Source of the DNA: Methanosarcinaceae archaeon
GTDB lineage: Archaea; Halobacteriota; Methanosarcinia; Methanosarcinales; Methanosarcinaceae
Reading direction: 5' to 3'
NCBI GenBank assembly: GCA_019429165.1
Contig: JAHYJJ010000001.1
Span: 1-45,781 of the forward strand
DNA length: 45,781 bases
Shown: positions 1 to 31,230 of the stretch, piece by piece
How the letters are laid out: every line of letters begins with the position of its first letter
Position numbering within the stretch: the first letter of the stretch is position 1
The notes under the pieces: model-generated
What the model was told of the DNA's origin: nothing
What the model saw: the letters and a program-made list of their open reading frames with translations, nothing else
Database searches by the model: none
Program-made: the position numbers and the translations under genes

Positions 1-261
1 CTGGGATTAATATCCCTGTTGTTGTGGTTACATTACTTGCACCATAAAACACGTCTGTGTCGCTCACATTATAGATTATAATTGTTCTACGACCAACTTG
101 TTCAATTGTCGGAATTAAATAAGCAATATTCAATGTTGTTAAGGTTACTGCTGTTGTAACCATTGTTGTCAAAGCATTTGTATTGGTTATAAGTGTATCT
201 TGTTTTGCTGCTGTAGCTTTCCCAGTAGTATCACAAACAGTTATCTTTCCGTCAATACTTG
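1..261. repeat. Direct repeat, copy 1 (partner 30501-30761)
   Basis: Base-by-base comparison: 1-127 is identical to 30501-30627. There are 10 substitutions over 128-261 (at 128, 131, 133, 169, 206, 209, 211, 215, 237, 251). Similarity is lost after 261. Confidence 0.95.
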
Positions 262-1000
262 AAAGTGTGGTTTCAGATGCCATATTAGATGTTCCATTTG
301 TTTCTTCTATACTAACTTTTAAATTCCCACCTGCAGTAGAGTCAATCGGTGTGAAATATCCGTCTGGTTTTTGTGCAGTCAAGACGGCTTTAACTAACTC
401 GGCGTCATCTTGTGGAGAAATTAAATCATTAATTCGGTGACTGCTGGGCTTAACATAATACGGTTTCAATATGGTCTGCAATCTGAAATATGTCTGTGCT
501 GTTCCGCCATTAGTATACACAATTCGATAATATCGCGCAGCTGGTTGAAACGAATAAACCTTTGCATCTCCTGCATTGATGGTATACACATCGCCGTCGT
601 CCCAGGTAATTCCATCTACTGAAAATTCAATTTTAAATCCGTCAGTAGCTGACGTATGGCTCGCGGTTACCATAACTTGAATAACACCGAAATTCTTGAT
701 GTCTTCTGCCTCTCCTGTGAATACACCACCAACCAATAACGGTGTATTGGTGCTATTAACTAACGATACATGTCCAGGACTGAATGTAACTAATCCTTTA
801 TGACCGTCACAAGAAATAATATCTGCTAGGTTACCTGCTGTATCTGTAATCTGTGTCTTTTGACTACCATTTGTTTGGTTTTCTTGTGTAGCTGGATTTA
901 AGACTGTGCCAGAATCGTTCACAACAGTCACTCTCTTAGAACCCGATGTGTCTATATGTTCAGATTTCGTGCATTCTTGACTATTCTTTGAAGTTACCAC
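1..1000 (-). CDS. Tail-fibre / receptor-binding-like protein of unit A (3' end cut by window start)
   Basis: My own translation gives an uninterrupted minus-strand frame over all 1000 nt (VVTSKNSQECTK...GFKIEFSVDGITWDDGDVYTINAGDAKVYSFQPAARYYRIVYTNGGTAQTYF...SIDGKITVCDTTGKATAAKQDTLITNTNAL...RRTIIIYNVSDTDVFYGASNVTTTTGILIP). It is absent from the ORF track because it runs off the window. GTG at 1000 is preceded by GAAGGTG, 2 nt after the portal stop. The last ~87 visible aa are almost identical to the C-terminus of the 30409-31230 product. Function is inferred from position and repeat-like fibre motifs only. Confidence 0.6.
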   Translation of the reverse strand, partial: MVTSKNSQECTKSEHIDTSGSKRVTVVNDSGTVLNPATQENQTNGSQKTQITDTAGNLADIISCDGHKGLVTFSPGHVSLVNSTNTPLLVGGVFTGEAEDIKNFGVIQVMVTASHTSATDGFKIEFSVDGITWDDGDVYTINAGDAKVYSFQPAARYYRIVYTNGGTAQTYFRLQTILKPYYVKPSSHRINDLISPQDDAELVKAVLTAQKPDGYFTPIDSTAGGNLKVSIEETNGTSNMASETTLSSIDGKITVCDTTGKATAAKQDTLITNTNALTTMVTTAVTLTTLNIAYLIPTIEQVGRRTIIIYNVSDTDVFYGASNVTTTTGILIP

Positions 1001-1002
1001 AA

Positions 1003-3183
1003 CTACACCTTCTTAGCAATGAATGTGTGTCTACTTTGATAATGAGACACTGGCGCAAGTGGATTGACCGTCCAGTCTGGAAAATATTTCTTGGACACCC
1101 TGGTCAATATACTCACATAATCATCCCAGGACACGCCAGACTTGGTTAATTGTTTGATTTCCTTGGATGCCTGGGTGGTTCGGTTATCATCTACACCGAT
1201 ATGATAATATTTGTAAGTCTCGCCAGTCTTGTCATATTGAACCTTACGTGATGCCACACTTATCTTGGTGGTCTCAGTCCTTGCAATGTTGCGCAACCTG
1301 GACTCAATCGCTGTGGTGTTCTCTTTCATGGCTTCAACTATGTTATTTATGCTGAAACCCTCTTTATTATCATACGCCAGGACAACTGCATTTTTTAACT
1401 TTTGGCTTAGTTCCTCGCTCATATTAGCAAACGCTTCCTGGTATACTGGTTCTCTCTTAAGGGCCTCAACCACGTTCTTATCAACATCAGTATATGTAAA
1501 TTCTCTACCGATATCCTTGCCCAGGTCTTGCATGGCTTTTCTATATATCGCCTTAAGTTTACTACTACTCTTGGACTTGATAACGCTATCAAAATCTTTA
1601 ACCGTCTCTCTAATCTTAGCATCCAACTCAGCAGTAGTTGGTCGTGTTTTAGAATCAAACTTGCTCAACAGTTTCTCAAGCTCATGTAACAACGCATTCT
1701 CTAGTTGTTTCTCTTGCTTTGCTTGAATAGGGTCGTTTTTTTTTATACTCTTACCCAGGCTCTTACCCATGTCAAAGAATGAATCTTGCGCAACGTTCTG
1801 GATTGTAACCTTACCAGCACCGAATGAAAACTCACCAGTCTCGTTCATGGCAACCTCAATCCCCAGCTCAGCCGTAGCCTTAGCAATCTGGATATCTTTC
1901 AACCGCAAATCCTTCTCGTACACTTTATCCTGGTCTCTGCTTGGATTTAATATGATTTCATAGTCTGAAACACCTAACTGCGCACACACCCAGGGTAATA
2001 TCTTCTCGTTATATATACTCTGCCCCATCTCAACCCCACGGTCGGTGACTTTAATCTGTAATCCCTCGTTGTTCAGACCACCACCCTGACTCGTATCATT
2101 CTGGAATATTGGCGACACATTAAATACTGACCCAATCTGGGTGCGTATTTCGTTCCGCACCTCAGAATATTGCATCTCTTGTAAATTGCGCATGAAATCT
2201 ACCCATTTAATAGGGTCTTTACCATCACCAGATTGATGAATAAGCGGATTAATAGCATGTGGATTCTTGCGCACTTTTTCAATGAATGCGTCCCAGAATG
2301 TCCAGAAACCCTGAGCATTACTTGTATTAACTGTCAATATACCTTTAGGTACTTTGTTTCCAGAATAATATTGTTTGATGTAATAATCCATGTTAATGAG
2401 AGTTATTGTTTTGTTATACAAAGAATACAGTGGACTGAAACCGTAGGTTTTTGTTGGATGATACTTGGATACGTGTAATATCTCACTTGTGTCATAATAT
2501 GAAAAACTACTCGTCTTACCACCCACTCGCACCTTGTAACATGCTCGCATGTTTTTTATTCCGTTTGTATTGTGAGTGTCCTGTGTAATCTCAGACCTAT
2601 TTTCTGGGTCAAAGAATACAGGTTGACCGTCTGAGTTATGCGCCAGACGGTTAGTGGAATCAAAAACCATCTCAATACTTAGCGGGTCTACCCTTAGGAA
2701 CTCCTGAACCTCCGCACCGATAATTTCGTTATATCCATTAACCAGGAAGTTCTTCCGTGCGAATAGATAAGCGTCATCCACAATATTCAAATCGTTCTCA
2801 ATTTCCATGAGCACCTCTTTAAGTGTCTGGCTGTTAGAGTTAGCCTTGCGCAATAAATCCTCAACCTTTTTAATCTGCGCGTCGTTCTCAAACGTGGTCG
2901 TGTTTTTGCAATTAAAGCCGTTCCTGAAGATTTCACTTTTAAGTGTGTTCAATACGTTTTGTAATATGTCAGAATACACACTAAGTTGATACAACTCAAC
3001 CACACCAACCCTAGTGTCAAAGATACCCCATGATTGTGTCTTGTCCAGGCTGAAGAAACTATTCTCATCCTGTGGTCGCAAATAATTCTGAATGACTTTA
3101 AGATCTTCAGCACCTTTTGTCAAACTTTTAAAATCTGATGACTTGACTATCTTAAAATTTTTAACCAAATTAAATAATCCCAT
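1003..3183 (-). CDS. Portal protein fused to a Mu F / SPP1 gp7-like minor head protein domain
   Basis: 726 aa. The N-terminal ~450 aa have portal-like segments (FSPLYSLYNKTITLINMDYYIKQYYSGNKVPKGILTV) that parallel the unit B portal. The C-terminal part has the MuF-type motif NIARTETTKISVASRKVQY and the tail HYQSRHTF. Lies two small ORFs downstream of TerL. Confidence 0.7.
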   Translation of the reverse strand: MGLFNLVKNFKIVKSSDFKSLTKGAEDLKVIQNYLRPQDENSFFSLDKTQSWGIFDTRVGVVELYQLSVYSDILQNVLNTLKSEIFRNGFNCKNTTTFENDAQIKKVEDLLRKANSNSQTLKEVLMEIENDLNIVDDAYLFARKNFLVNGYNEIIGAEVQEFLRVDPLSIEMVFDSTNRLAHNSDGQPVFFDPENRSEITQDTHNTNGIKNMRACYKVRVGGKTSSFSYYDTSEILHVSKYHPTKTYGFSPLYSLYNKTITLINMDYYIKQYYSGNKVPKGILTVNTSNAQGFWTFWDAFIEKVRKNPHAINPLIHQSGDGKDPIKWVDFMRNLQEMQYSEVRNEIRTQIGSVFNVSPIFQNDTSQGGGLNNEGLQIKVTDRGVEMGQSIYNEKILPWVCAQLGVSDYEIILNPSRDQDKVYEKDLRLKDIQIAKATAELGIEVAMNETGEFSFGAGKVTIQNVAQDSFFDMGKSLGKSIKKNDPIQAKQEKQLENALLHELEKLLSKFDSKTRPTTAELDAKIRETVKDFDSVIKSKSSSKLKAIYRKAMQDLGKDIGREFTYTDVDKNVVEALKREPVYQEAFANMSEELSQKLKNAVVLAYDNKEGFSINNIVEAMKENTTAIESRLRNIARTETTKISVASRKVQYDKTGETYKYYHIGVDDNRTTQASKEIKQLTKSGVSWDDYVSILTRVSKKYFPDWTVNPLAPVSHYQSRHTFIAKKV

Positions 3184-6140: not shown

Positions 6141-6183
6141 ATTTTTCACCTCCTTCAACAAAACCGATAACAGTAGCGACTTT

Positions 6184-6284
6184 ATAAGATTATAGCAATT
6201 ATAGAGTGGTTTCCCACTTACTCTATATATAATACCTCTCATGTGAATAAGTGGGAAACCACTCTATATTTCACATAATCTTAT
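6184..6284. repeat. Large palindrome P1 (related to P2 at 16190-16300)
   Basis: Perfect 20-nt arms atagagtggtttcccactta (6201-6220) / taagtgggaaaccactctat (6248-6267). Outer perfect 10-nt arms ataagattat (6184-6193) / ataatcttat (6275-6284). AT-rich 27-nt centre. Confidence 0.9.
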
Positions 6285-6450
6285 AATTTTATTAGGCACC
6301 AAGTATATTATTATATAAATGTTACCCCACATATTAATCGAACCTCTATTTTTCGCAAACTTAAAAAACTCTCACCAATTAATAGTAACAATTTTTATCA
6401 TTTTTTTTTAAAATCCCACAGACCAAAAGAATAACCATAAAAATCGTTTT

Positions 6451-6610
6451 TATGGTTCTCAAAATATCTCCCAACCATATAACGCCGTTATATAACTTTT
6501 ATGGTTCTCAAAATATCTCCCAACCATATAACGCCGTTATATAACTTTTATGGTTCTCAAAATATCTCCCAACCATATAACGCCGTTATATAGCTTTTAT
6601 GGTTCTCAAA
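6451..6610. repeat. 49-bp tandem direct repeats, 3.3 copies (iteron-like)
   Basis: The unit tatggttctcaaaatatctcccaaccatataacgccgttatataacttt starts at 6451, 6500, 6549 and 6598 (partial), with one substitution in copy 3. Each unit holds two dyads (tatggtt..aaccata and tataacgCcgttata). An inverted copy aaccataaaaa-tcg-tttttatggtt precedes the array at 6434-6458. Confidence 0.95.
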
Positions 6611-7486: not shown

Positions 7487-7858
7487 CTAACACCCGAACA
7501 CTGTTAATGAGGCGCATCCTAGGATTGCGCCTTTTTCATCCCTGACTAGTTGGTCAGGGATTAAGAAATCGTTTCGGTCGGGGAACGCCTGCCCCACAGC
7601 CAAAGACACGATATACATCGTGCCTTCAACACTTTCGGGAATTTCAGCACTCCCGAAATGTTTGCTGTAAACAGGTATACCGTTTACAGTAAATATTTTT
7701 TTTCTGTCCTCAGACAGTCTTATACTACCCTCGGAAGGGTAGTTCACAACGACTTTATTTGTCGTTGTGTCTATAATCCCTACATTGTGGGGAGTTAAAT
7801 TTATTATTTTTACATTAAACGAATGCAATTGTCCATTCTTATTTATTGTATCTTTCAT
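7487..7858 (-). CDS. Conserved protein of unknown function; paralogue of 42126-42470
   Basis: About 75% aa identity over ~100 aa with the unit B copy (NLTPHNVGIID..YIVSLAVGQAFPDRNDFLIPDQLVRDEKG). SD AAGGTGA lies upstream of the ATG. Confidence 0.7.
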   Translation of the reverse strand: MKDTINKNGQLHSFNVKIINLTPHNVGIIDTTTNKVVVNYPSEGSIRLSEDRKKIFTVNGIPVYSKHFGSAEIPESVEGTMYIVSLAVGQAFPDRNDFLIPDQLVRDEKGAILGCASLTVFGC

Positions 7859-8013: not shown

Positions 8014-8062
8014 GGGTGTTCTCACACCCTCAAATATATATTGTATTATATATTTATAAAGG
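8014..8062 (-). promoter_or_regulatory. Conserved replication-module motif, copy a: hairpin plus AT-rich box
   Basis: Hairpin gggtgt-tctc-acaccc (8014-8029) next to caaatatatattgtattatatatttataaagg. The same box recurs at 11205-11236 and 13943-13972. Overlaps the PolB stop and precedes the next transcription unit. Confidence 0.4.
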
Positions 8063-10363
8063 TTTCGGTATTTCGTCCCATTTTGTAACCTTGAGCACCT
8101 TATTGAGCGGAGTTATGATACGACCCCAATAATAAGCCTTGTCATAATCAGACCCCAACTCGTACTCTGCAACCGATATCGCCTCTATTCGTGGCTTGGT
8201 GGACTTGACAATATATTGTATATTGTCACCGACAAAGAACTCGTGACCCTGCGCAATCAAACGCTTGACCAGGACAATATGCGCCGGAATAGGCGCATAT
8301 CTTACCTCCCCGTCCTTGTTTATTTTGGGCGCGCCAGTCTTGCTGTCTATCATGGCTCGACCATACTCTCCTATAGGCTTGACAAAATTTTTGGTCATAA
8401 CTAAATGTCCTGAGTCTAACGTATTTGTCTTGATTTGCTCGGCAATTAACCGAACACCCCCTAGGAAAACGTCATAGTCAAACCGGTCATATAATATGTC
8501 CTCAATCATACCACGTTGCATGGTTGATGCCAGTGGATTAGTGTCCTTCCGAATACATTCCAGACCAGTTATACTCACCTTGAAATCACCAGTAGGAACA
8601 CCTGCACCGTCGACCAACTCCTCAATCGCTGCATAATTCTTCTTCATGATAGATATCATGCGATGGAACGTCTTCTCCCATTCAAACACTATCATGTGTT
8701 CTCGGATACCCATCTCCTGAGCCCAGATATCAAACTGAACCTTGAGAGCATCCTCAAGAACCTTGTGGTCTGAGCCCTTAAACATGATACTATCTGTGTC
8801 TCCCTGCACCACAACATATCCCATACCCTCAGCAAAGTGTCGTGACCGATTTATTATCTCCCTCGCAAACTGCGTCACAGCAGATGCAACATCAAAGTTA
8901 TACCACCGAAAATTGACAAACGCCAAAGCACCATACAAGGAGTTAGCAATGGTTTTAATTGCTTTCTCGTACAGTTGCATCTCTCGGAACCTATCTGGGT
9001 CGGATTTAATATACTGAAACTTATCATATTTAACCTTGTCACGCTCCAAGATTAACCCACGTGCCACATCGGACACTACACCCTGAATATTATTTGAGAA
9101 ATACTTCTCCCCAGATTCAACCATCTCCCCAGACCTGTACAGACTATTTGCTGGGATTACCACACACCCAGGTTCACGCCGGGATAACAATGTCGTACTA
9201 CAGATGTTACACATTGCAATCGTACTCGGATAAAATGACTTGAAATCCAGTACAAACACATTATCATGAACCCCAGGATTATCACAAAATACCTCGGCAC
9301 CCAATATCTTCTCCTTACGTCTCTCGGCAGATTCGTCAATGGTAGGTTTGCTGGGTGATATGACACCTCGCTCCCGACACTTATTTAACACCATGTAATC
9401 ACAGACGTCTGAATTGTTCATGGTATCCTGAATCAAACAATGAGCAATCTGTGCAGCTTTTTTATGTAGCCCAAACATATTTAGTTTCTGTTCCAACTGG
9501 AACATCAACTCAACGTCCTGTTCATTGTATTTCTGAAGTAATGTATCCCCGCTGAATGACTCCACCCAGGCTCGGAATATATTCCCATTCCCTGCAGTTA
9601 TACCGCCCAGTTTTCCCATATTAAGTATTTCTCGGCACACGTTATCCAGCGAATAACTCGGCAACCCCAGGACGTTCTTTTTAATTATCTCCATGTAATC
9701 CATTTTATTAATGTAATCCAGGAACAACACCGATATGTTATGTAACTCACAACGTTGGCGGATGTAGGCATCATCAAACTTCTTTCCATTCCAGGCGGAA
9801 CAAATGTCGTACTGCTCAATTACCTTTTTGTGTAACAGTAACAGGTCACACTCACCAGAATATATATCGTCCAGGTTATTATTTTTCAAATACAAAACAT
9901 TCCCGTCACAGTCCTTGTATGCTATACACAATATAGGCTCTCTTGCAATGATAACCCCACGGTCGTCCGATTCAAACAAGCCATCGTCCTTGGTCTCTAT
10001 GTCATACATGACCCATTTCAAACCCTGCGACTCCAGGTCTAACCCAGGATTGCAGGTCAGGTATCTCTTGACCGCATTCACGTCACCCTCGTATACTGTG
10101 ATACCCGCATTCTCAAGACTCCACCGCAACAAACCACGGTCTGTATTGTTGTTCAGAAATAACCCAGTGTACCCAGGAAACACTTGACTGTCCGACACAT
10201 TAGAAATCCATTGATATGACTTCTCAGGTATCAAACCCACATCAGACTGGTGGATGAATATATAATTGTAAAATGGAACGCTCTCAAAATGTGTACCTTT
10301 ATCATCTCGAACCTTAACCCAAATAAAAGTCTCTTCCTCCTTAGCGCTGACTATAGTCCTCAT
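8054..10363 (-). CDS. polB: Family B DNA polymerase
   Basis: Exo I YDIETKDD, Exo II WNGKKFDDAY, Exo III YNEQDVELM, motif A LDFKSFYPS, motif B KTIANSLYGAL, motif C VVQGDTDSI, KKNYA. The ATG at 10363 overlaps the upstream TGA (ATGA). Confidence 0.9.
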   Translation of the reverse strand: MRTIVSAKEEETFIWVKVRDDKGTHFESVPFYNYIFIHQSDVGLIPEKSYQWISNVSDSQVFPGYTGLFLNNNTDRGLLRWSLENAGITVYEGDVNAVKRYLTCNPGLDLESQGLKWVMYDIETKDDGLFESDDRGVIIAREPILCIAYKDCDGNVLYLKNNNLDDIYSGECDLLLLHKKVIEQYDICSAWNGKKFDDAYIRQRCELHNISVLFLDYINKMDYMEIIKKNVLGLPSYSLDNVCREILNMGKLGGITAGNGNIFRAWVESFSGDTLLQKYNEQDVELMFQLEQKLNMFGLHKKAAQIAHCLIQDTMNNSDVCDYMVLNKCRERGVISPSKPTIDESAERRKEKILGAEVFCDNPGVHDNVFVLDFKSFYPSTIAMCNICSTTLLSRREPGCVVIPANSLYRSGEMVESGEKYFSNNIQGVVSDVARGLILERDKVKYDKFQYIKSDPDRFREMQLYEKAIKTIANSLYGALAFVNFRWYNFDVASAVTQFAREIINRSRHFAEGMGYVVVQGDTDSIMFKGSDHKVLEDALKVQFDIWAQEMGIREHMIVFEWEKTFHRMISIMKKNYAAIEELVDGAGVPTGDFKVSITGLECIRKDTNPLASTMQRGMIEDILYDRFDYDVFLGGVRLIAEQIKTNTLDSGHLVMTKNFVKPIGEYGRAMIDSKTGAPKINKDGEVRYAPIPAHIVLVKRLIAQGHEFFVGDNIQYIVKSTKPRIEAISVAEYELGSDYDKAYYWGRIITPLNKVLKVTKWDEIPKPL

Positions 10364-10662: not shown

Positions 10663-10671
10663 ATACAACAC

Positions 10672-11169: not shown

Positions 11170-11184
11170 CTCTTTTTTTTTTTT

Positions 11185-11236
11185 TACATACCTAAAAGGT
11201 ATGTAAATATATAATGTATTATATAATATATAAAGG
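11185..11236 (-). promoter_or_regulatory. Conserved replication-module motif, copy b
   Basis: Perfect dyad tacatacct-aaa-aggtatgta (11185-11205) followed by aaatatataatgtattatataatatataaagg. A T13 run lies at 11173-11185. Confidence 0.4.
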
Positions 11237-11260
11237 TTGTGGTTTAAACAACATCAGACA

Positions 11261-13321: not shown

Positions 13322-13352
13322 ATCAAATCACATAAAAAAAAAGGTTGTGGTC

Positions 13353-21735: not shown

Positions 21736-21754
21736 ATTGTTGTACCTTTATATT

Positions 21755-21976
21755 TTATTTCGAGCCCAGCATCCTACCCAGCGCCTTAAATCGTTCTTCC
21801 TCTTCAATCGCTCTTCGTCGCATACCATAATATTCTATACCGTTTACAATGTCAACGTCCACATCATCCAGGCCGATATTAAACCCCAATAATAACAGAT
21901 TGGAATATTTCATCACTTGTTGTGCCTGTGGAGTAATCTTAGTTATTGTCTTGGGAGTCTTGAGTATTGCTCGCAA
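21755..21976 (-). CDS. T-like extension of the tail assembly chaperone (reached by -1 frameshift)
   Basis: It lies in the -1 frame relative to 21985-22293, and that frame is open from the slip site onward. It has no good independent ATG/SD at the track start (TTG). Confidence 0.45.
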   Translation of the reverse strand: MRAILKTPKTITKITPQAQQVMKYSNLLLLGFNIGLDDVDVDIVNGIEYYGMRRRAIEEEERFKALGRMLGSK

Positions 21977-21984
21977 CTCCCTGT

Positions 21985-22293
21985 TCAGTTTGGGTCTCCA
22001 GCTCCACCCAGGCTACCCATGACATCCTTTTCAAAATACTTTTTATATATTCTTGTTGCGTCAGCACCCTCAAGTTTGTCAAGATCTATCCCCTTGACAG
22101 TCTCCAGGCACGTTTCAATCATACCCAGGACGTCAATGTCCCCTCGGATGGATACGCTCCCATCCTTACCGAAACTTAAATCATTAATCGGGATGTGTTT
22201 CTTAGCAACCTGGTTGGCTCTCCTGAACCCCAGCCTGGACACTTCAACATCAACAGTCGTTCCGTCTATGTATTTAACTATCTCTTTCACCAT
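21985..22293 (-). CDS. Tail assembly chaperone (G-like)
   Basis: 102 aa, between the major tail protein and the tape measure. Ends at the slippery heptamer. Confidence 0.5.
   Translation of the reverse strand: MVKEIVKYIDGTTVDVEVSRLGFRRANQVAKKHIPINDLSFGKDGSVSIRGDIDVLGMIETCLETVKGIDLDKLEGADATRIYKKYFEKDVMGSLGGAGDPN
21988..21994 (-). other. Candidate programmed -1 ribosomal frameshift site C_CCA_AAC
   Basis: Minus-strand gaC CCA AAC tga: an X_XXY_YYZ heptamer immediately before the stop of the 102-aa ORF. The -1 frame reads on into 21755-21976. Sits between the tube and tape measure genes. Confidence 0.55.
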
Positions 22294-23198
22294 TATAAAT
22301 CACCAACCACAGTAACATCCAGAGCCTCATAATCGTAGGATATTGCCTTTTTTGTGGTATCCATAGTCATATCCATAGACCTTGCGAAACTTCTAGTATT
22401 TGCAAGTGTGAATATATGTGAGTTGTCTGTTCCCCTAGACATAGTAACTGTTATCGCTTCATCAGCTCTATCTTCCGTATATCCAAACTCTTGAGTGTCG
22501 TTCACTTCAACCTCGTATGAACCATTTATATCAAGTCTGTGCCGTAATACAGTTGTGATAAGTCTGCGACTTCCAGCACCAACTGCTTCAATACCTCTAC
22601 CCTCATTATCGGTCACGTTCCAGTTACCAGACAAATTGAAACTGTTTAGTACAGATGGAACTTCACCAATCGTAATTGATGTGTCAAGCCAGGACATAGG
22701 AGTGCCCGTGTTTGTAGTCACACTTAACGTTTCTGTTACTTTTGACATTTTTTTTGCAATACAATTAAGTGTCATACTGATACTTTCATCCTTAGATGCG
22801 CTTATATCAAAATCTTTAACAACCAGACCGTTTAAAAGCCCAATCTTAGTCCCTTGATAGAAGAATTTTAGGGATAATGATTGTATTGTTGGGTCACTTG
22901 TGACCGTATAATCCACGGCATCATCCCTTGCTCCAAGTGCTAGTTTAAGTAAGACAGGTAAACTTGCCTTACTTACTTTAGTCTCAATCGTGACATTAGC
23001 CCAATATAAACCGTCCTCAAACATTGCATTTAAATGCCCAGCGTTTAAACTGGTTAACTTTTCTGTATTGTCTTCTTCCTTAACAGTTATTTTTTGAATG
23101 TGACCTAAGTCAACAGCTGTAAAAGGAGTTGGACTTGTTCCATAAGCAGTCTCTATTGCCCCAATATATTTATTACCTACATTACTAATACATACCAT
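22293..23198 (-). CDS. Major tail (tube) protein candidate
   Basis: 301 aa, directly upstream of the chaperone pair. Position only. Confidence 0.45.
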   Translation of the reverse strand: MVCISNVGNKYIGAIETAYGTSPTPFTAVDLGHIQKITVKEEDNTEKLTSLNAGHLNAMFEDGLYWANVTIETKVSKASLPVLLKLALGARDDAVDYTVTSDPTIQSLSLKFFYQGTKIGLLNGLVVKDFDISASKDESISMTLNCIAKKMSKVTETLSVTTNTGTPMSWLDTSITIGEVPSVLNSFNLSGNWNVTDNEGRGIEAVGAGSRRLITTVLRHRLDINGSYEVEVNDTQEFGYTEDRADEAITVTMSRGTDNSHIFTLANTRSFARSMDMTMDTTKKAISYDYEALDVTVVGDL

Positions 23199-23218
23199 AC
23201 AATCACCCTATATTATTA

Positions 23219-23731
23219 TTATGCTGTCATGCTCCGACAGTAATCTATCAACCTTACTTTTATAACATATCTAAAAATACCCCGGAAACCATTTGATAAA
23301 TCTGTTATTTCTATGTTTGGGTCTATCACATCAAAGTTAGCGTCTGGATTGACAATCTTGGTCGCCAGGACACGTCTAACCTCAACCAACACCTTGCGAG
23401 CGTGTGTGTCTACAATCTTGGTGGCCTGGGTGGTATTGCTCGGTTTGACCCGAATATCAATCTTGACAATTTCTGTAATCTGAGAGTTTGAATTTTGTCC
23501 GATACCCACAGACCCCTGGGTCGTGAGCTCGGAATATACGTAAATATAATCCTGACCAGGCGCTGGTTCTTTATCGGTCGGTTTGGTGTATATCTTAGCA
23601 ATGGTTGGTGTTATAGAATCAGCGTTTGTTTTAGTATAATTAGAACTAAGTAATGTTACAATGTTATCCAGGACATTTATATCTGTTACCATACTTATCA
23701 ATCTCGCAAAACCAATCAAGGTCTTAAACAT
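23219..23731 (-). CDS. Tail terminator / head-tail joining candidate
   Basis: 170-aa ORF between the connector and tube genes. Position only. Confidence 0.35.
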   Translation of the reverse strand: MFKTLIGFARLISMVTDINVLDNIVTLLSSNYTKTNADSITPTIAKIYTKPTDKEPAPGQDYIYVYSELTTQGSVGIGQNSNSQITEIVKIDIRVKPSNTTQATKIVDTHARKVLVEVRRVLATKIVNPDANFDVIDPNIEITDLSNGFRGIFRYVIKVRLIDYCRSMTA

Positions 23732-23745
23732 ACATACAAATGCGA

Positions 23746-24360
23746 CTATTGAAATTCTGTATTATTATCTAATATATTTTTAATTTCATCTTTCCATAAA
23801 TTCTTTGTAGAATCCCAGTTAGGTTTGGACTCACCAACTTGCGTAAATAGTACCGTGCTGAACTCTGGGCTGTTAAGTATTTTGAGTGCAACCATCATAG
23901 TGGCACAATCTTCAACACCACCAGATACCGTAGTCTCACCGAACACATAAGTCACTCTGACACCGTGTGGGTATAATCGCCGTACACCATTTAAAAATAT
24001 AACACCGTTCTGTTTGTCCACCCAATAATCATATGCTCGACCCTCAACTTTATCAACCACCCAGTCAACCCACACACCATCCTGCCAAATTTCAATATTG
24101 GTTATGCTCTGGACACTTCGGTGGACTAGGTCAATCCGAATACCTGCACCAGACCGAAAAACTGATGTAGGTCTTGAATATTCCTTGGTTACGGTCTTGG
24201 CTTTCCAGGAATGGCTTGTAGTGCTATCAATCCTATCCTCAGCCCTATTTATGAGCCCCTCTATTACGGTTGCCGTAGGTGTACTGTTGGTATCAAAGTA
24301 ACCATCTGGAAACCCCAGCATGTTCGCTACTTTGTTGGTTGTTGTATAAGTTACTACCAT
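23746..24360 (-). CDS. Head-tail connector candidate
   Basis: 204 aa. N-terminus (YTTTNKVANMLGFPDGYFD...EGLINRAEDRID) resembles gp6-like head-tail connector N-termini. Preceded by late motif copy 2. Confidence 0.4.
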   Translation of the reverse strand: MVVTYTTTNKVANMLGFPDGYFDTNSTPTATVIEGLINRAEDRIDSTTSHSWKAKTVTKEYSRPTSVFRSGAGIRIDLVHRSVQSITNIEIWQDGVWVDWVVDKVEGRAYDYWVDKQNGVIFLNGVRRLYPHGVRVTYVFGETTVSGGVEDCATMMVALKILNSPEFSTVLFTQVGESKPNWDSTKNLWKDEIKNILDNNTEFQ

Positions 24361-24382
24361 AAATAAGAATACACCTTTTGTT

Positions 24383-24397
24383 CTTATATATGTAACT
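24383..24397 (-). promoter_or_regulatory. Conserved late motif, copy 2; 30 nt from TATATAAG to the ATG at 24360
   Basis: Exact cttatatatgtaact. AAAGGTG lies between the motif and the ATG. Confidence 0.45.
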
Positions 24398-24450
24398 GAA
24401 AATTAGAAATAGGTGATGCGCAGAAAACCACACACCACAATTAAAATATA

Positions 24451-24717
24451 TTAATAACCCATTGCTACAAACACACCAGACTTATCTGCTGTCGTTACAA
24501 TAGTTATTGCTCCACCTGCGACTGGGAATGTTTCATTTATAACTGGTTCATTTAGGTCAACTGCTGAACCAGTACCCTGCAATATACAACCTGTGCAGTT
24601 TGTCAGACCAGTTAAGATGTCTCCACCTGTTCCACCTGCGGAACTAGTGTAAGTTCCTGTTACTATCTTTTTATCTCCGAAATATGTTTGTCCTGTTATT
24701 GTATATGTAAATGCCAT
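24451..24717 (-). CDS. Small Gly/Thr-rich protein (possible capsid accessory)
   Basis: 88 aa. Composition and size resemble 34048-34296 and 34339-34584, which follow the unit B MCP. Confidence 0.45.
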   Translation of the reverse strand: MAFTYTITGQTYFGDKKIVTGTYTSSAGGTGGDILTGLTNCTGCILQGTGSAVDLNEPVINETFPVAGGAITIVTTADKSGVFVAMGY

Positions 24718-24719
24718 AA

Positions 24720-24926
24720 TTAATTCACCTCAATGAAACCTAATTCTTTTTTAAGAAATTCAACTGCTCCGTCCATTTCCTTATCCATACTGAAATAATA
24801 TCCAGATTTAGGAACTGTGACCGCTTCAACACCGTTGATGTAATACACAACTTCATCTGCCGTCTGTTTAGGATTTTTAAGTAACCTAAACTTCTTATCT
24901 TTTATCTTATCTATAATATTACTCAT
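24720..24926 (-). CDS. Hypothetical protein
   Basis: 68 aa. ATG overlaps the upstream stop (ATGA). GGTGAT lies 3 nt upstream. Confidence 0.45.
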   Translation of the reverse strand: MSNIIDKIKDKKFRLLKNPKQTADEVVYYINGVEAVTVPKSGYYFSMDKEMDGAVEFLKKELGFIEVN

Positions 24927-25138
24927 AATATCACCATTTTTTTTTTTTTTTTGGGTGAATCACCATATTTTAAAAATAATTTTTCAACTACATCATTTCT
25001 ATATGGTAAATGTTTTTTATTTTGTATAGAGTTTATTAAAATATCTCTTGTTGGAAATTGGCTTATTATATCTTTGCTTGTTTTTTTAGATATACCCTTT
25101 GTAGTTTCTAATTCTGTAACAAAATCCATATTAAACAC
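24923..25138 (-). CDS. Small HhH-like protein ending in a poly-Lys tract
   Basis: LETTKGISKKTSKDIISQF resembles a helix-hairpin-helix. The C-terminal KKKKK is encoded by an A16 run. Confidence 0.45.
   Translation of the reverse strand: MFNMDFVTELETTKGISKKTSKDIISQFPTRDILINSIQNKKHLPYRNDVVEKLFLKYGDSPKKKKKMVIL
24937..24952. repeat. 16-nt homopolymer (T16 on plus, A16 in the mRNA) inside coding sequence
   Basis: Counted directly. Lies 10 nt upstream of the next ORF start. Confidence 0.95.
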
Positions 25139-25140
25139 CC

Positions 25141-25179
25141 AATAAAAAAAAGAAAATAAAAAGACCTTATAAAAGGTCT
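25141..25179 (-). terminator. Hairpin plus T-rich tract after the unit A major capsid gene
   Basis: Minus strand: agacctt-ttat-aaggtct (7-bp stem with the MCP stop codon in the loop), followed by ttttattttcttttttttatt. Confidence 0.55.
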
Positions 25180-26258
25180 CTTATCTTTCCCTGAGCATTG
25201 AACCTGTTACAGACAAGCTCGCCAGCCATGTAGTACATACCCTCTTTACCTAACTTACCAGCCTCAAAGAAGTTGGAAGTTTCAAAGTATTGTACTGGTT
25301 GTTTAACGCCTATATGTATATATTCTGTGTTTAGGAAGTAAATTCGGCTCTTTGTGTCTTTTGTAACATCTTTATCTCGTATGACAGGAATGCCATCAAA
25401 GGATGCAACTCGTAGACCAACATCGTTCCCTGCCGCTGTCTGAATACCACCATCGCCAACTGATATGTTAACTCGTTCGTTTACATATCGTGTCTGAGTG
25501 TTAACCAGAGCATCTAGGTCTCGTGCAGTGTCAAACCCTGTTATGATAACATTTGGTCTTGCGCCTGAGTTTTCTTCAATAGAATCTATTGCAGTCCTAA
25601 CCAATGCTTCTGTTATAGCTCGGTCTACACCACTTGCATGTGAAACGTAAGCGTCGTAAGCTGTGGATGCACTTCGGTCAAAACCATATATGTCAGCATC
25701 TCCTGCTGTCAATAAAGCTGATTCCTCAGATTGCCCAGAACATACTCGGTCTATGGACTCAATGTTATTTCCTGCGACTGTATCTGCATCACCGTGCAAC
25801 ATTTTGTTTATATGGTTTGCGAACTCTTTCGCCATATATTGTTTTACATGGTCGAAACCGATAGTGTCGTCGTTACCATCATCTAAAAGCTGTTGTCGGT
25901 TTGACATATCAAAAGTCTTACTAACTTCTTTCAATGATATTGCTGCAAGCGCCCAGGTTGGTTTAACTGTTTCTGGAAGTGCTGCATTTTCTGCCACGCC
26001 ACCAGTTCCCAGTGTGCTAGACCTTGCTGTGATAACTCTGAACCCTGTGTTTGCAAGTGGTTTCTTAGGTAGAACGCCCCAAGTTCGTGCCTCGTTATTA
26101 AGTAATTCCCAGACCGCTTCACCGTATACACGGTTATATACACCAGTAGTTGAACTTATCACAGGTGCGTCTGCTTTCATTACAGCCTGTGCGATGTCAC
26201 TATCTATGCTGCCATAATATGCTTCTTTCATATCTTCTATTGTGTTGAATTTAACCAT
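25167..26258 (-). CDS. Major capsid protein, HK97 fold (unit A)
   Basis: 363 aa, directly after the protease-scaffold gene (TAA-ATG abutting). Its length, its position and the C-terminal segment SRIYFLNTEYIHIGVKQPVQYFE are typical of HK97-like MCPs. Confidence 0.8.
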   Translation of the reverse strand: MVKFNTIEDMKEAYYGSIDSDIAQAVMKADAPVISSTTGVYNRVYGEAVWELLNNEARTWGVLPKKPLANTGFRVITARSSTLGTGGVAENAALPETVKPTWALAAISLKEVSKTFDMSNRQQLLDDGNDDTIGFDHVKQYMAKEFANHINKMLHGDADTVAGNNIESIDRVCSGQSEESALLTAGDADIYGFDRSASTAYDAYVSHASGVDRAITEALVRTAIDSIEENSGARPNVIITGFDTARDLDALVNTQTRYVNERVNISVGDGGIQTAAGNDVGLRVASFDGIPVIRDKDVTKDTKSRIYFLNTEYIHIGVKQPVQYFETSNFFEAGKLGKEGMYYMAGELVCNRFNAQGKIRDLL

Positions 26259-27233
26259 TTAAATCGCCCTCATTTGACTTCCTAAACTTGCAAAATCTAT
26301 CTTGCCAGACTTAGCCATGTCTTGTAAACTCTTTCTAACATCTGTAATCTTGTTAGTCTTTTTAATCTCAGCCGGTCTTGATGTCATTATTGTTTTTGTG
26401 ACCATTGACTTTTTAAGGTCTGAAATTTCTTTTTTCATAACATCCATTTCAGTTGCTAGTTTTGTGACATCATCATCTGGTTTGTCTTCCTCAGTTGCAT
26501 CGTCTGCCTTTTCTTCTTCCTCAGCGGATGTTTCCACATCTTCGGCTTCTGGGTCTTCGGCTTTCTCTGTCTCAACCACATCCTCGACTGGTGTGTCACC
26601 CTCTGGAGCCCCAGACAACTTTCCCTCAAGCATTGTAATCTTATCAATGATTGAAGTAATCATGTTCTCTAGAGCGGATATTTTAGATTCAACATCTACA
26701 ATTGGTTTGTCTTCCATCATAGGTGTTTCGTCCGCCTTAACTACATTCTTTTTTGCCATAACATTAACCTCGGTAAAGGTTGCTTCTTGATTACCTGTGT
26801 GGTCTACCAGACTGAACTCGTAACCTATCAGGTCTCTCAAATAAGTACCTTCTTTTGTTTTTTCTCTGTTAAATGATTTACCACCTATTGATAAACCCTC
26901 AAATTCTCCTTTCTTGATACCTTCCCAGACCGTGTCATCTTCCGTATAATGTTTGTATATTATACCTGTAATGAGTACCCCTTTTCTACCGTTCTTTTCT
27001 GATCGTTGCCAGTTTAAACCTTTGCCGACATTACGATTTGTGTGCATGAACTGTATAGGCGCTCCTCTATCCATCCAGATATCCATTATTTTATATATTT
27101 CTTCGGCTGGTATAATCTCGTCAGCTCTGTCCAATACCTCAACCGACCCCCAACATTCAAATTTACGCATTTCGTTATCGTTGATTTGGTTGAAACCAAA
27201 GGACTTTAAAAGTATTTTTTCGTCTGCTACCAT
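26259..27233 (-). CDS. Prohead protease fused to an acidic coiled-coil scaffold region (unit A)
   Basis: N-terminal HK97-protease-like segment (ECWGSVEVLDRADEIIPAEEI...QFMHTNRNVGKG). C-terminal Glu/Asp-rich coiled coil. The ATG at 27233 lies 1 nt after the upstream TGA. Confidence 0.7.
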   Translation of the reverse strand: MVADEKILLKSFGFNQINDNEMRKFECWGSVEVLDRADEIIPAEEIYKIMDIWMDRGAPIQFMHTNRNVGKGLNWQRSEKNGRKGVLITGIIYKHYTEDDTVWEGIKKGEFEGLSIGGKSFNREKTKEGTYLRDLIGYEFSLVDHTGNQEATFTEVNVMAKKNVVKADETPMMEDKPIVDVESKISALENMITSIIDKITMLEGKLSGAPEGDTPVEDVVETEKAEDPEAEDVETSAEEEEKADDATEEDKPDDDVTKLATEMDVMKKEISDLKKSMVTKTIMTSRPAEIKKTNKITDVRKSLQDMAKSGKIDFASLGSQMRAI

Positions 27234-27234
27234 A

Positions 27235-27654
27235 TCAAATCGCCATAATTTTATTTCTAACCATTTCAACTGCAGGACTTAAAAAAGGTCGTGGTTCTTG
27301 CCCGTTCTTTTTAATGTTCTTTACAATGAAATAAGCTACAGTATTTATGTTTTTTTCTCCTTTTACAAAACCTTTTCTTCTTAGCCAAGCTTTTATGGTT
27401 TCAATAGGAACGTCATCGCCCGGCAACCTCCCAAATTCAATAGTGTCGGCATAAGGCACGGGGTAAACTATGGATTTTTCAAGAAATCCTCTGTTGATGT
27501 TACCGCTCTTAAGCAGAGTCCCCTCGTCAACTATACGTTTACTAATTATAATTTCCTGAGAATTAGCAAATATTTCATCCACAATCTCGTCTAGTTTTTT
27601 ATCTATGAAAGTTAACATTTCTTTATCATTGATGTTAATAGAAAAATCTACCAT
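27235..27654 (-). CDS. HK97 gp10-like protein
   Basis: Pattern SQEIIISKRIVDEGTLLKSGN...VPYADTIEFG...PRPFLSPA matches the conserved outline of the gp10 family. Preceded by late motif copy 3. Confidence 0.5.
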   Translation of the reverse strand: MVDFSININDKEMLTFIDKKLDEIVDEIFANSQEIIISKRIVDEGTLLKSGNINRGFLEKSIVYPVPYADTIEFGRLPGDDVPIETIKAWLRRKGFVKGEKNINTVAYFIVKNIKKNGQEPRPFLSPAVEMVRNKIMAI

Positions 27655-27676
27655 ACACTAACCAGTGATGTCTGGA

Positions 27677-27691
27677 CTTATATATGTAACT
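27677..27691 (-). promoter_or_regulatory. Conserved late motif, copy 3; 30 nt from TATATAAG to the ATG at 27654
   Basis: Exact cttatatatgtaact. As in copy 1, the upstream gene's TAG stop is embedded in the motif. Confidence 0.45.
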
Positions 27692-28016
27692 ATTTGAAAT
27701 ATATGGCAATGTCTTGAATCTTCTCGCCGTCACCCATACCGGAAACCACAATAAACAATGACCCCATAACGTAATAATTGTCTATATGCGTCTGCTCCTG
27801 TGACACAGAAACGATGTTCTTGGGATAAAACCGTGTGACCACACCAGTTAAGTAATCGTCACATAAAACCTCGCCGTCCATAGATGTGATGGTTATCTTG
27901 ACATTAGGCAATGCAACCCCAGAAAACACCACAACCTTGACAACCTCGCCATTAATGTTGTCTAGGTCTCCCTCTATATTCTCGCTAATCTCTCCAGTTG
28001 TATATACATTTGTCAT
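27690..28016 (-). CDS. Hypothetical protein
   Basis: 108-aa ORF. No motif. Confidence 0.5.
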   Translation of the reverse strand: MTNVYTTGEISENIEGDLDNINGEVVKVVVFSGVALPNVKITITSMDGEVLCDDYLTGVVTRFYPKNIVSVSQEQTHIDNYYVMGSLFIVVSGMGDGEKIQDIAIYFK

Positions 28017-28022
28017 ATAATA

Positions 28023-29876
28023 TCACCTATTTATATTTACTCTCTTGCTCATACTTGCATCTTTAACTTTTTGAAGTGTTATTGTCCAGTCTACTCTATC
28101 TTCAATATTCATCGTAGTCTTATATGTTTTATATCCAGACTTCTTAATCTCCAAAGTAAAAGGATTGTAATCTACATATGTCGAATATCCATTTGAAACT
28201 AAGGTTATCGGTGTTAAATCTGCAAATTGAATATATGGGATTATTATGTATCTACTAGCAGGGGCAACGTGTGTAACCGCTACTTCAAAATGAGGAGCAA
28301 CATATATTTCGGTTGCATTGTTGCCCTTATAAATATTTCTTCGTTGTCCAATTCCTTGATTTGCAGTTATAAATACCTCCTTATTGTGCCATTGACTTGT
28401 AGACCAATTTTTGCTCAAGTCTTTTACCTTATCCAAATAACCGTTAGTTACGGTTCCATATTCTTCGGTGGGATAACCATCTTCAGTTGTATCTTGTTGG
28501 AAAACTATTGTATCATTTTTATTTTTTACAGTCACAGTAGCTCCCTCAATCCCGTTATTTTTTTCATCTATTACTTTTAACAATAACGAAAACCATAATT
28601 TTACGTGGATGTCGGTAGCGTTTGGTACGGTCCAATAAGCCCGTCTCTCTTTCAATATATTTTTATTGTAAATACAATCAATGTGATTTTCTACCCAACC
28701 ATTAACCGTTATCGCATACGGATTACTCATATAATTGCTACATTTTGAATAATTGTTGTTGTGGAAATAATTATTGAAATTGTCAGGATACACAGCAGAC
28801 ATCCCCCTGACAGCTAGCGCCCCAAAAAATGTACAACCCGCAATGATTGCACCACCCGATTCTGTGTGTGCAAATGCGATTTTACAACCAATTACAGCAT
28901 TCTGTGGTGCTGTAAACCACGTATTTCTGAAATTGTCAAAAAAGACGTCATATATTTTTTGCCCGTTTAACTGTCCTATACCACCGCCCCAATGCCCGTG
29001 AAATATTGACGAGCCGGTCATATGCACGTGTTTTATTTGCGTATTAAAAAGATTACTGTTTCCCCCGATAATTAAAGTCTTTGGTAATGAAGAATTATAA
29101 ACATTGAAAATATATATACTCCCCGCATACACTTTGTCACCCATATATTGTAATCCGGATAATGTTACAGCTGATGACGAACTGTGTATATCATTGTTTT
29201 TTAAAAATTGTATTGTTTCGTTTTGTGTGCTGAAATAATTGTTGGCATTAAAAGTCAATCCACAACCAACACTGTAACATCTTTCATTTTTTGATATTAC
29301 GCCCCAACCACCTGTCACACTTGCGTTATATATATCATCCATTGTGCAAGGTGCATCTACCGTGAAACCATCAACAACAATATTATTTACATTTGCATAT
29401 AATATACCGGTTTGTTTTCCACCTTCGGTTAATGTTGTCATTGATACAATTCTACACCTAACGAACCATTCGTACCATCTTGTAGTGCTATTTGGGTTAA
29501 AAAAATTCTCCCAATCCTCTGGCATATCCCAGCGGATAGTATTAACACCGATAGTAGTAAATCCGTTTGTATTATCTACCACACCTGTTAATGCGTGCCA
29601 GGTTGGATTATAATACCCAGTTCCTCGTTTGGCATATTCCCAAACAAGAACAACACCAGTACCAATTAAAGCAGTCCCAACATTGAAATTAAGACCAGAA
29701 TATTTCCCGCTAATATTAGATAGGGATATGACTAAACAGTCGCCAACTTGTGCAGTATCAGGAAAGAAATCAATATTCAGGTAACCTAAATTTAAACTAT
29801 AACTATCTACACTCAAATCATAAAAAAAGCTTGCTGTTATTCTGTTCGCGTATTCGTATGTTATTGTCCCTACCAT
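28023..29876 (-). CDS. Large structural protein, spike-like, with a carboxypeptidase-regulatory-like C-terminal region
   Basis: 617 aa. Central Asn/Gly-rich repetitive region compatible with a beta-helix. C-terminal LLLKVIDEKNNGIEGATVTVKNKNDTIVFQQDTTEDGY and FTLEIKKSGYKTYKTTMNIEDRVDWTITL resemble CarboxypepD_reg-type domains. Confidence 0.45.
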   Translation of the reverse strand: MVGTITYEYANRITASFFYDLSVDSYSLNLGYLNIDFFPDTAQVGDCLVISLSNISGKYSGLNFNVGTALIGTGVVLVWEYAKRGTGYYNPTWHALTGVVDNTNGFTTIGVNTIRWDMPEDWENFFNPNSTTRWYEWFVRCRIVSMTTLTEGGKQTGILYANVNNIVVDGFTVDAPCTMDDIYNASVTGGWGVISKNERCYSVGCGLTFNANNYFSTQNETIQFLKNNDIHSSSSAVTLSGLQYMGDKVYAGSIYIFNVYNSSLPKTLIIGGNSNLFNTQIKHVHMTGSSIFHGHWGGGIGQLNGQKIYDVFFDNFRNTWFTAPQNAVIGCKIAFAHTESGGAIIAGCTFFGALAVRGMSAVYPDNFNNYFHNNNYSKCSNYMSNPYAITVNGWVENHIDCIYNKNILKERRAYWTVPNATDIHVKLWFSLLLKVIDEKNNGIEGATVTVKNKNDTIVFQQDTTEDGYPTEEYGTVTNGYLDKVKDLSKNWSTSQWHNKEVFITANQGIGQRRNIYKGNNATEIYVAPHFEVAVTHVAPASRYIIIPYIQFADLTPITLVSNGYSTYVDYNPFTLEIKKSGYKTYKTTMNIEDRVDWTITLQKVKDASMSKRVNINR

Positions 29877-30118
29877 AATAACTCACCTAGCAAAAAAATT
29901 ATTTCGTCTTTTTGTTGTTTTAATTGTATCTGCCTACCTATTTTTGAATCATTTAAAACCATTATTTCATCTGGTTCTTGATTCACAACAGCCAACTGAT
30001 TATTTAATTCTGTTAGTTGTTCATTAAGTTCATCAATAGACACAACATTAATTGGGTCTGGGTTCGCACTTTTTGCATATACTCCACCGTTATCATCACT
30101 AATCTTTATCCAAACCAT
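29870..30118 (-). CDS. Hypothetical acidic protein
   Basis: 82-aa ORF overlapping the start of the 617-aa gene by 7 nt. Confidence 0.45.
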   Translation of the reverse strand: MVWIKISDDNGGVYAKSANPDPINVVSIDELNEQLTELNNQLAVVNQEPDEIMVLNDSKIGRQIQLKQQKDEIIFLLGELLW

Positions 30119-30124
30119 ATGGCA

Positions 30125-30283
30125 TCAATCTACATACTTATAACATTTTCCGTTGTACAAAAACATATCATAATCATCTACATATACAGGATTTTCTGTT
30201 TTCTTAATCATAAAATTTATATCTGTAGAAGTTAGATATGACTCGCTTCTATAATAATTCTTAAATTCTGTTAATACACTCAT
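30125..30283 (-). CDS. Small hypothetical protein (52 aa)
   Basis: My own translation: MSVLTEFKNYYRSESYLTSTDINFMIKKTENPVYVDDYDMFLYNGKCYKYVD. Below the track cut-off. Confidence 0.3.
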   Translation of the reverse strand: MSVLTEFKNYYRSESYLTSTDINFMIKKTENPVYVDDYDMFLYNGKCYKYVD

Positions 30284-30287
30284 AACA

Positions 30288-30407
30288 TCACTTCAACTTT
30301 TTAATTAAACTATCCTTCATTTTGATGTCTATAATATCATAAGACCACAAAATATTAACTGCTTTAATAACATTGTAATCCTTTTGTATTTTGTCTGTAA
30401 TCTTCAC
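30288..30407 (-). CDS. Small hypothetical protein (39 aa, GTG start)
   Basis: My own translation: VKITDKIQKDYNVIKAVNILWSYDIIDIKMKDSLIKKLK. Starts 1 nt after the fibre stop. Confidence 0.25.
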   Translation of the reverse strand: MKITDKIQKDYNVIKAVNILWSYDIIDIKMKDSLIKKLK

Positions 30408-30408
30408 G

Positions 30409-31230
30409 TTACTTCATCTCCAACGCATTTATAATTTTTCCAGACGTTCCACACACCGCATATAAACCACTCTCGCAATCTATGGCATCTTTACCACCCG
30501 CTGGGATTAATATCCCTGTTGTTGTGGTTACATTACTTGCACCATAAAACACGTCTGTGTCGCTCACATTATAGATTATAATTGTTCTACGACCAACTTG
30601 TTCAATTGTCGGAATTAAATAAGCAATGTTTAGTGTTGTTAAGGTTACTGCTGTTGTAACCATTGTTGCCAAAGCATTTGTATTGGTTATAAGTGTATCT
30701 TGTTTCGCAGATGTTGCTTTCCCAGTAGTATCACAAGCAGTTATCTTTCCATCAATACTTGTAGTATCACCAGCAATTGTTGATAATGATGTGTTAGATG
30801 TGTCTTGTTTTTCTTCTGTTGATGCATTAGTTGGTAAATCAACTTTAAACTTATTACTTAGATAATTAAATGTTCTTTGGAATATATCTTCGTGTCTAGA
30901 ACTAATTGTAAAATCATCTGTTATGGGTTCAACAGTTAAATCTTGTGCTGAATAACCAGTAGTAGTATTAACAGTAACAGTAGCGTTCTTATATTTCTTA
31001 ACACTATCTCCAAGTATATAAGCTTCAATTAATATTGGGTCTCCGTTCCGATAACCTTTATAATTTGCTAAATCTATTACATATTCACCGTTAGTGTCCG
31101 TAGATGTAGAACGAGTTTCATTTAAACGTTTATTTGTAACACGGATTGTTGCAGATGCAAGTACAAAAGTACCATCTACATCGTAAATTGTTCCAGAAAT
31201 TGTGTATGGTGTAGCGACCAATATAGTCAC
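30409..31230 (-). CDS. Fibre-like protein of unit B (carboxypeptidase-regulatory-like N-domain, shared C-domain)
   Basis: N-terminus ISGTIYDVDGTFVLASATIRVTNKRLNETRSTSTDTNGEYVIDL is a CarboxypepD_reg-like pattern. The C-terminal ~115 aa are shared with the product of 1-1000. Confidence 0.6.
   Translation of the reverse strand: MTILVATPYTISGTIYDVDGTFVLASATIRVTNKRLNETRSTSTDTNGEYVIDLANYKGYRNGDPILIEAYILGDSVKKYKNATVTVNTTTGYSAQDLTVEPITDDFTISSRHEDIFQRTFNYLSNKFKVDLPTNASTEEKQDTSNTSLSTIAGDTTSIDGKITACDTTGKATSAKQDTLITNTNALATMVTTAVTLTTLNIAYLIPTIEQVGRRTIIIYNVSDTDVFYGASNVTTTTGILIPAGGKDAIDCESGLYAVCGTSGKIINALEMK
30501..30761. repeat. Direct repeat, copy 2 (partner 1-261)
   Basis: See copy 1. Confidence 0.95.

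Follow-up and report, generated by a model that had tools for sequence, protein, structure and literature searches.

The stretch of DNA analysed here (the window) is the whole 45781-nt contig JAHYJJ010000001.1 of the Methanosarcinaceae archaeon assembly GCA_019429165.1. It contains a self-closing tailed-virus unit (unit A, 128-30500) followed by a second virus-like unit (unit B, 30628-45781), the two being joined inside fibre-like genes through a repeat whose first copy begins at base 1. On balance, the contig is probably a walk along a tail-plus-cycle (lollipop) in a k = 127 de Bruijn graph, and is unlikely to represent one molecule; the 'virus inside virus' layout is most likely not a real feature. 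The fibre-like gene of unit B is nevertheless a natural chimera, reflecting a real and recent module exchange between the A and B lineages.

Self-comparison of the window showed that positions 1-127 and 30501-30627 are exactly identical. The similarity continues between 128-261 and 30628-30761 at 92.5% identity, with 10 substitutions (sites 128, 131, 133, 169, 206, 209, 211, 215, 237 and 251 of the first copy), and then stops; past 262, the identity between the copies is at the random level. The same values had been given in a preliminary description of this sequence, and re-measurement reproduced them. The second copy of the repeat is complete, and the first is broken off at the contig end after 261 nt. 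The parts of the repeat are as follows.

1-127, minus strand: first copy of the exact 127-mer (node V), at the contig start; here the coding sequence of the truncated fibre-like gene A ends (...TTTGILIP)
30501-30627, minus strand: second copy of the exact 127-mer (node V), lying inside the contig
128-261, minus strand: diverged portion of the shared segment in its A-type form
30628-30761, minus strand: diverged portion of the shared segment in its B-type form, which shows that the A-like C-terminal module is genuinely in gene B

Within 128-261, about 6 of the 10 substitutions are synonymous and three amino acids are changed; the next 42 codons carry zero substitutions. By our own arithmetic, a 127-nt exact run at 7.5% divergence has a probability of 0.925^127, about 5e-5, so the switch from diverged to identical sequence is real. 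A 127-nt exact match within 45.8 kb cannot be attributed to chance. Each copy forms the in-frame 3' part of a minus-strand gene, and the N-terminal parts of the two genes are unrelated; on this point, comparisons of the open reading frames (ORFs) and of the proteins agree with the preliminary description. Joining base 1 to 30500 yields a single uninterrupted ORF ending in ...CGTSGKIINALEMK and a stop codon, so that the frame at base 1 is in phase with 30500-30409, as had been claimed.

NCBI nr lists the window's own proteins on a contig of 45781 nt, and JGI/IMG lists them on a twin of 45810 nt; the window is therefore the entire contig. The surplus of the twin amounts to 29 nt, all of them at the right end, and base 1 is therefore a true contig end. 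The right-end ORF encodes 83 amino acids in the JGI copy vs. 76 in the window, the added residues being EIGRAHV followed by a stop codon. Appending AGATCGGAAGAGCACACGTCTGAACTCCA (29 nt of the Illumina TruSeq adapter) to position 45781 reproduces the JGI right-end protein exactly. The contig thus ends on the right at an adapter tip inside an ORF that starts at 45553 and whose family usually has 117-133 amino acids. The right end is thus a technical stop, which suggests that the k-mer coverage of B is patchy. A trimmed terminal repeat of a 45.8-kb circle was also considered as the source of the 29-nt difference, and was discarded once the extra bases proved to be Illumina adapter.

In the JGI Metagenome Workflow, metaSPAdes is run with k = 33, 55, 77, 99 and 127 on 2x150-nt reads from ~300-bp fragments, and SPAdes is known for artificial 127-bp overlaps at contig ends. 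We infer from the JGI/IMG twin that this workflow was the source of the contig. The length of the exact repeat, 127 nt, is the final k of the workflow. Because 127 is the size of a graph node and the repeat is flush with the contig end, the shared exact stretch is at least 127 nt long. The preliminary description had put the exact part at 127 nt from window base 1; the match stands, while its length is a minimum, as the contig end cuts it off.

The two genes that share the repeat are composed of the following parts, in which GC3 denotes the GC content at third codon positions.

2-1000, minus strand: fibre-like/adhesin-like gene A, which loses its 3' end at the contig end; 30500-30409 supplies the missing part in frame
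30409-30500, minus strand: end of the shared module (last 30 codons and stop), GC3 0.45 and A-like; attached to gene B in the contig, and also completing gene A across the join
30762-31230, minus strand: B-native N-terminal part of fibre-like gene B, CarboxypepD_reg-like, with a weak PF13620 match below the curated cutoff

The called protein of the truncated gene A (P0001) has 333 amino acids. The joined gene A is collinear with P0005, P0012 and P0033 over its whole length, to the last residue. The N-terminal 156 codons of gene B have a GC3 of 0.135 and are paralogous to the neighbouring B genes at 31232-31765 and 31770-32480. The shared part has a GC3 of 0.40 vs. 0.135 for the N-terminal part of B, and the boundary of the module is sharp (261/262 and 30761/30762). 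Apart from this pair, the shared C-terminal module was found only in A-type proteins (P0005, P0012 and P0033), and an insert of ~30 residues in the shared part occurs in this A and this B alone, the other family members having none. Scans for the module elsewhere returned one 21-residue partial match in IMG/VR and none in the JGI metagenomes. The base composition, the A-specific insert and the sharp switch of identity together show that B carries an A-derived stretch identical over at least 127 nt. Gene B is thus a natural chimera. An identical stretch of at least 127 nt is enough to merge both genomes in a k = 127 graph.

The fibre-like genes belong to modules for head morphogenesis, where they follow the portal in A-type genomes and the major capsid protein (MCP) in B-type genomes, and no PHROG or Pfam match to tail-fibre families was found for their products. 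The label 'fibre' of the preliminary description is therefore not retained in its literal sense. The central domain of protein A has ~970 homologues, some of them annotated as F5/8 type C-like. An AlphaFold model of fibre-like protein B from a 5-sequence alignment was unusable (mean predicted local distance difference test score of 34). The fibre-like proteins may be capsid decorations or adhesins rather than tail fibres.

Unit A closes into a complete tailed-virus genome with a 30,500-bp map. The earlier claim of a complete 30.5-kb unit is borne out by six independent contigs that have the same order across the join, and by the full length of the joined gene. The features of unit A are listed below.

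1003-3183, minus strand: portal-MuF fusion (PF04860 and PF04233), 71% identical to the portal of L017
3939-5288, minus strand: TerL (PF04466 and PF03237)
8054-16092, minus strand: replication module
8054-10372, minus strand: family B DNA polymerase (PolB), family match
11261-13321, minus strand: PD-(D/E)XK nuclease plus helicase, family match
13984-16092, minus strand: Prim-Pol/DnaG-Zn/DUF5906 primase-helicase, family match
20608-27269, minus strand: structural core
20608-21735, minus strand: tape measure, family match
22293-23198, minus strand: tail tube, family match
25167-26258, minus strand: HK97-type MCP, family match
26259-27269, minus strand: XkdF-type protease/scaffold, family match
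27235-28016, minus strand: 139-aa (amino-acid) and 108-aa head-module genes, which in relatives come immediately after the portal or the fibre-like gene (L002, L004, L007, L009, L010 and L017)
28023-30408, minus strand: variable 2.4-kb cargo between the fibre-like stop codon and the 108-aa gene, absent from L017
28023-29876, minus strand: 617-aa protein of the cargo, GC3 0.29
29870-30118, minus strand: 82-aa ORF of the cargo, accompanied by two small ORFs

Family matches support TerL, portal-MuF, protease, MCP, tail tube, tape measure, primase-helicase, nuclease-helicase and PolB in the gene order proposed earlier; the labels 'TerS', 'spike', 'gp10-like', 'RBP' and 'tip' of that list are without family matches. 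A relative from ENA (L017, 71-85% amino-acid identity to A) has the order TerL, 81, 157, portal-MuF, a full-length fibre-like gene (319 amino acids), 108, 139, protease and MCP. In the IMG/VR contigs L002, L004, L007, L009 and L010, the 108/139-aa head genes follow the portal at a distance of 0.1-1.5 kb. Among the relatives of A, the interval from the portal to the 108-aa gene ranges from nothing to ~4.4 kb; in the window it is filled by the fibre-like gene and the 2.4-kb cargo. The closest relative of A (L001) has a distant collinear homologue (549 amino acids) of the 617-aa protein at the equivalent locus, and the gene contexts of other homologues are varied. The cargo was assigned to A because its GC3 of 0.29 resembles that of the A structural genes and because the L001 homologue occupies the same locus. 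The IMG/VR scan gave no match for the 617-aa protein or for PolB of A, and the scan of reference genomes gave none for MCP of A.

Unit B is an unrelated and incomplete virus, of which 15.2 kb are in the contig. Its GC3 is 0.21 vs. 0.40 for A. All-against-all BLASTP, together with nucleotide and alignment comparison for the fibre segment, showed that A and B are unrelated except for two short shared segments. The features of unit B are listed below.

31232-40685, minus strand: head and packaging module
40044-40685, minus strand: candidate small terminase
38630-40105, minus strand: TerL, family match
38555-38629, minus strand: tRNA-Met (CAT), directly downstream of TerL
36653-38200, minus strand: portal, family match
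35707-36606, minus strand: XkdF-type protease, family match
34602-35705, minus strand: MCP, family match
within 31232-40685, minus strand: genes after the MCP, encoding small proteins and then proteins of 391, 236 and 177 amino acids
41286-45781, plus strand: divergently transcribed genes, the last ORF (from 45553) being cut by the contig end

B-like relatives were found in L014, L029, L031, L032 and L042. The order MCP, small proteins, 391-like, 236-like and 177-like is kept in L029, L031, L032 and L042, with MCP identities of 51-55% where the MCP is largely present. Beyond the homologue of the 177-aa protein (181 amino acids), L029 continues with an 89-aa ORF and then a 249-aa ORF, which on visual inspection we took for a membrane protein and a head-tail connector, respectively; the 249-aa ORF has no Pfam match. 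Genes of the L029 type past the fibre-like locus are not in the window, where the contig enters A at that point. A more distant relative of B is on a 45-kb contig.

The second gene common to A and B (7487-7858, minus strand, and 42126-42470, plus strand) shows 79% nucleotide and 72% amino-acid identity and belongs to PHROG 30542. The sharing of this gene is older than the exchange of the fibre module, and it points to a common gene pool or host.

The assembly path can be pictured as follows. The sample would have contained two unrelated tailed viruses, A, self-closing at 30,500 bp, and a larger B. Each has a fibre-like gene in its head module, and the last ~117 codons of the B gene are an A-type module that, leftwards from 30627, is identical to A for at least 127 nt by recent recombination between the lineages. 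The identical stretch would merge the genomes of A and B at the single graph node V. On the minus strand, the path would lead from B (45781 to 30628) into node V, after which the A cycle (30500 to 128) would be the sole exit; it would then re-enter V (127 to 1) and halt on closure of the loop. The true continuation of B, which judging from a B relative would be a small membrane-protein-like gene and a connector-like gene, would be unattached to the graph here, probably through thin coverage of B. In this picture, the graph's shape, the thinness of B's coverage and the absence of a physical link between B and A are inferences. Such a path is what an assembler yields on a lollipop graph, whose node has two edges leading in and the cycle as its one way out, and it explains with no added assumption why the contig ends after one node length, why A is present once and complete, and why B is broken in the middle of a structural operon. 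The preliminary description had listed, as one of three readings, a path that circled one genome and exited through a shared 127-mer. That reading has gained the most support (a whole contig starting at the repeat, the JGI/IMG source, k up to 127 and the documented 127-bp overlaps).

Several observations weigh against the assembly path. If the branch of B had been present, metaSPAdes would be expected to have followed it or stopped at the repeat instead of turning into A, so the explanation needs that branch to be absent. As B holds together over 15 kb, a gap exactly at this point was not especially likely beforehand. An independent assembly of A alone or B alone was not found in the IMG/VR and JGI metagenome scans or in protein cluster look-ups. 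Exact-protein look-ups of six window proteins returned no record, cluster look-ups returned just the NCBI and JGI copies of this contig, and a nucleotide search of GenBank phages gave no match to either half of the window. Furthermore, the sudden switch at 30627/30628, where 7.5% divergence gives way to identity, also fits a recombination crossover.

Such a crossover is at the core of the first alternative, a physical cointegrate or recombination intermediate, which we regard as possible and rather unlikely. Circular or concatemeric DNA of A would have undergone one homologous crossover with B in the shared C-terminal module, producing the layout B-left, repeat, whole A, repeat and B-right in co-infected cells, and the contig would end at the second copy only because the assembler found no way past it. 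A Campbell-type crossover predicts direct repeats, an A permuted at the shared segment and both copies in frame. Recombination between A and B in the shared segment is evident from the rise from 92.5% to 100% identity, and A and B share the second gene with 72% amino-acid identity. The assembler did join B to A, which read pairs would allow if the exact repeat were shorter than the ~300-bp insert. However, the junction from A back into B is not in the contig, and an assembler that resolves the first pass through the repeat should resolve the second as well. The cointegrate would also hold two complete head and packaging modules. A of 30.5 kb combined with a B of ~45 kb would give ~75 kb, probably above the capacity of either capsid and unpackageable, leaving at best a rare intracellular form. 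Finally, the exact 127 nt and the start at the contig end are fully explained by the assembler.

A mosaic hybrid is improbable. Here a B-like virus would have taken up kilobases of A, at least the shared module and the 2.4-kb cargo. The exact shared region would then extend over kilobases, B would part from A at some point further left, and at that hidden branch the assembler would have gone on into A. The GC content of 28000-30500 (0.33-0.35) is nearer to B than to the average of A, the 617-aa protein has a weak CarboxypepD_reg-like match, as do the 177-aa and 273-aa proteins of B, and a repeat longer than the 300-bp insert would be unresolvable by read pairs. However, the GC3 of the 617-aa gene (0.29) falls within the range of the A structural genes (0.22-0.32) and outside that of the B tail genes (0.13-0.19). 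The homologue in L001, the closest relative of A, sits at the same locus, and in the B-like L029 no gene of this kind follows the 181-aa protein. The hybrid would, moreover, be a variant of the assembly artefact with no distinct molecule of its own. An assignment of 28023-30408 to B was accordingly rejected as the main interpretation on codon usage and the L001 homologue, and is kept as a minor alternative.

A single real 45.8-kb circular composite genome, with 45781 joined to 1 and cut by the assembler at the repeat, is very improbable. A two-copy repeat would indeed give a figure-of-eight graph in which a walk could begin at the repeat. However, the right end is without a repeat node, and the JGI version runs there into the Illumina adapter. 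Closure of the circle would make fibre-like gene A end in ...GILIPAFKSSMVTL and a stop codon (hand translation), which is not the conserved ending of the family, and the right-end ORF would have 92 amino acids compared with 117-133 in most of its family. The circle would also carry two complete sets of terminase, portal, protease and MCP. Tandem proviruses side by side in a host chromosome, the related pair of which was another of the earlier readings, scarcely merit consideration: two virus-like units do lie head to tail on one strand, but they are unrelated and B is incomplete, Pfam and PHROG scans of the window ORFs revealed no integrase, recombinase, att-like flank or host gene, the boundary falls within a structural gene as an in-frame fusion, and A would be split between its fibre-like gene and its head genes.

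Among known systems, the structure resembles a circular contig from SPAdes/metaSPAdes with its overlap of k length, to which a tail of foreign sequence has been added. Like such contigs, this one has an exact 127-nt repeat at its end, and what separates the two copies is a complete, self-closing genome; unlike in those contigs, the second copy is internal and 15.2 kb of a second virus follow. C-terminal modules are exchanged among fibre and receptor-binding genes of co-occurring phages, as in gp37/gp38 of the T-even phages and the side tail fibres of lambdoid phages. The genes described here resemble these in having a lineage-specific N-terminus, a sharp boundary (30761/30762) and a C-terminal module 92-100% identical to that of an unrelated virus, and in that the base composition gives the donor away. 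They differ in that both are in head modules and neither matches a tail-fibre family. In a Campbell-type cointegrate, direct repeats of the homologous segment likewise flank a complete unit permuted at that segment, whereas the contig shows a single junction and no more than 127 nt of the second repeat copy. Genome-quality tools flag viral contigs that hold more than one genome's worth of sequence. Here too the contig is longer than the genome it contains and part of it is repeated, but the surplus is a different virus and not a second copy.

The public record (NCBI nr and JGI/IMG), which seems to be one 45.8-kb viral genome, is thus most likely a complete 30.5-kb genome plus 15 kb of another virus. 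Used as one genome, it would skew analyses of genome size, gene content, taxonomy and host links. The real part is a recent exchange between two unrelated viruses, in which a head-associated fibre-like protein had its C-terminal module swapped. Such an exchange is routine viral mosaicism, and it points to a shared host of A and B. A cointegrate, if true, would be inter-virus recombination caught in the act in the same host, possibly an archaeal one, and a rarer catch than mosaicism.

The closest annotated relatives of the MCPs of A and B are in archaeal tailed viruses (HVTV-1/HCTV-1, 35-36%; HHTV-2, 26%; a Methanofastidiosa virus, 28%). In the genome scan, TerL of A was ~50% identical to terminases in Bacteroidota prophages and in metagenome-assembled genomes of Gracilibacteria and Nanoarchaeota.

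Three adjacent genes of B (43405-45313, plus strand) include a clear match to gamma-glutamyl cyclotransferase (GGACT) and weak amidoligase-like and GATase-like Pfam matches under the curated cutoffs. The trio may form a small peptide-modification or metabolite cassette.

The replication module of A is bracketed by two related long palindromes (6182-6291 and 16186-16304), separated by 10,010 nt. In one of them the stem is perfect over 49 bp (DNA fold of -46.5 kcal/mol, z -17), and in the other it measures ~38 bp (z -9.8). They may be module-boundary terminators, or recombination or regulatory elements. Beside the first palindrome, where convincing ORFs are few, lie 3.3 copies of a 49-nt unit at 99% identity (6448-6610), a candidate iteron array or replication origin of A. 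In the tape-measure gene of A, a 41-nt exact direct repeat with a spacing of 66 nt (20939-21045) gives an in-frame duplication of 22 residues.

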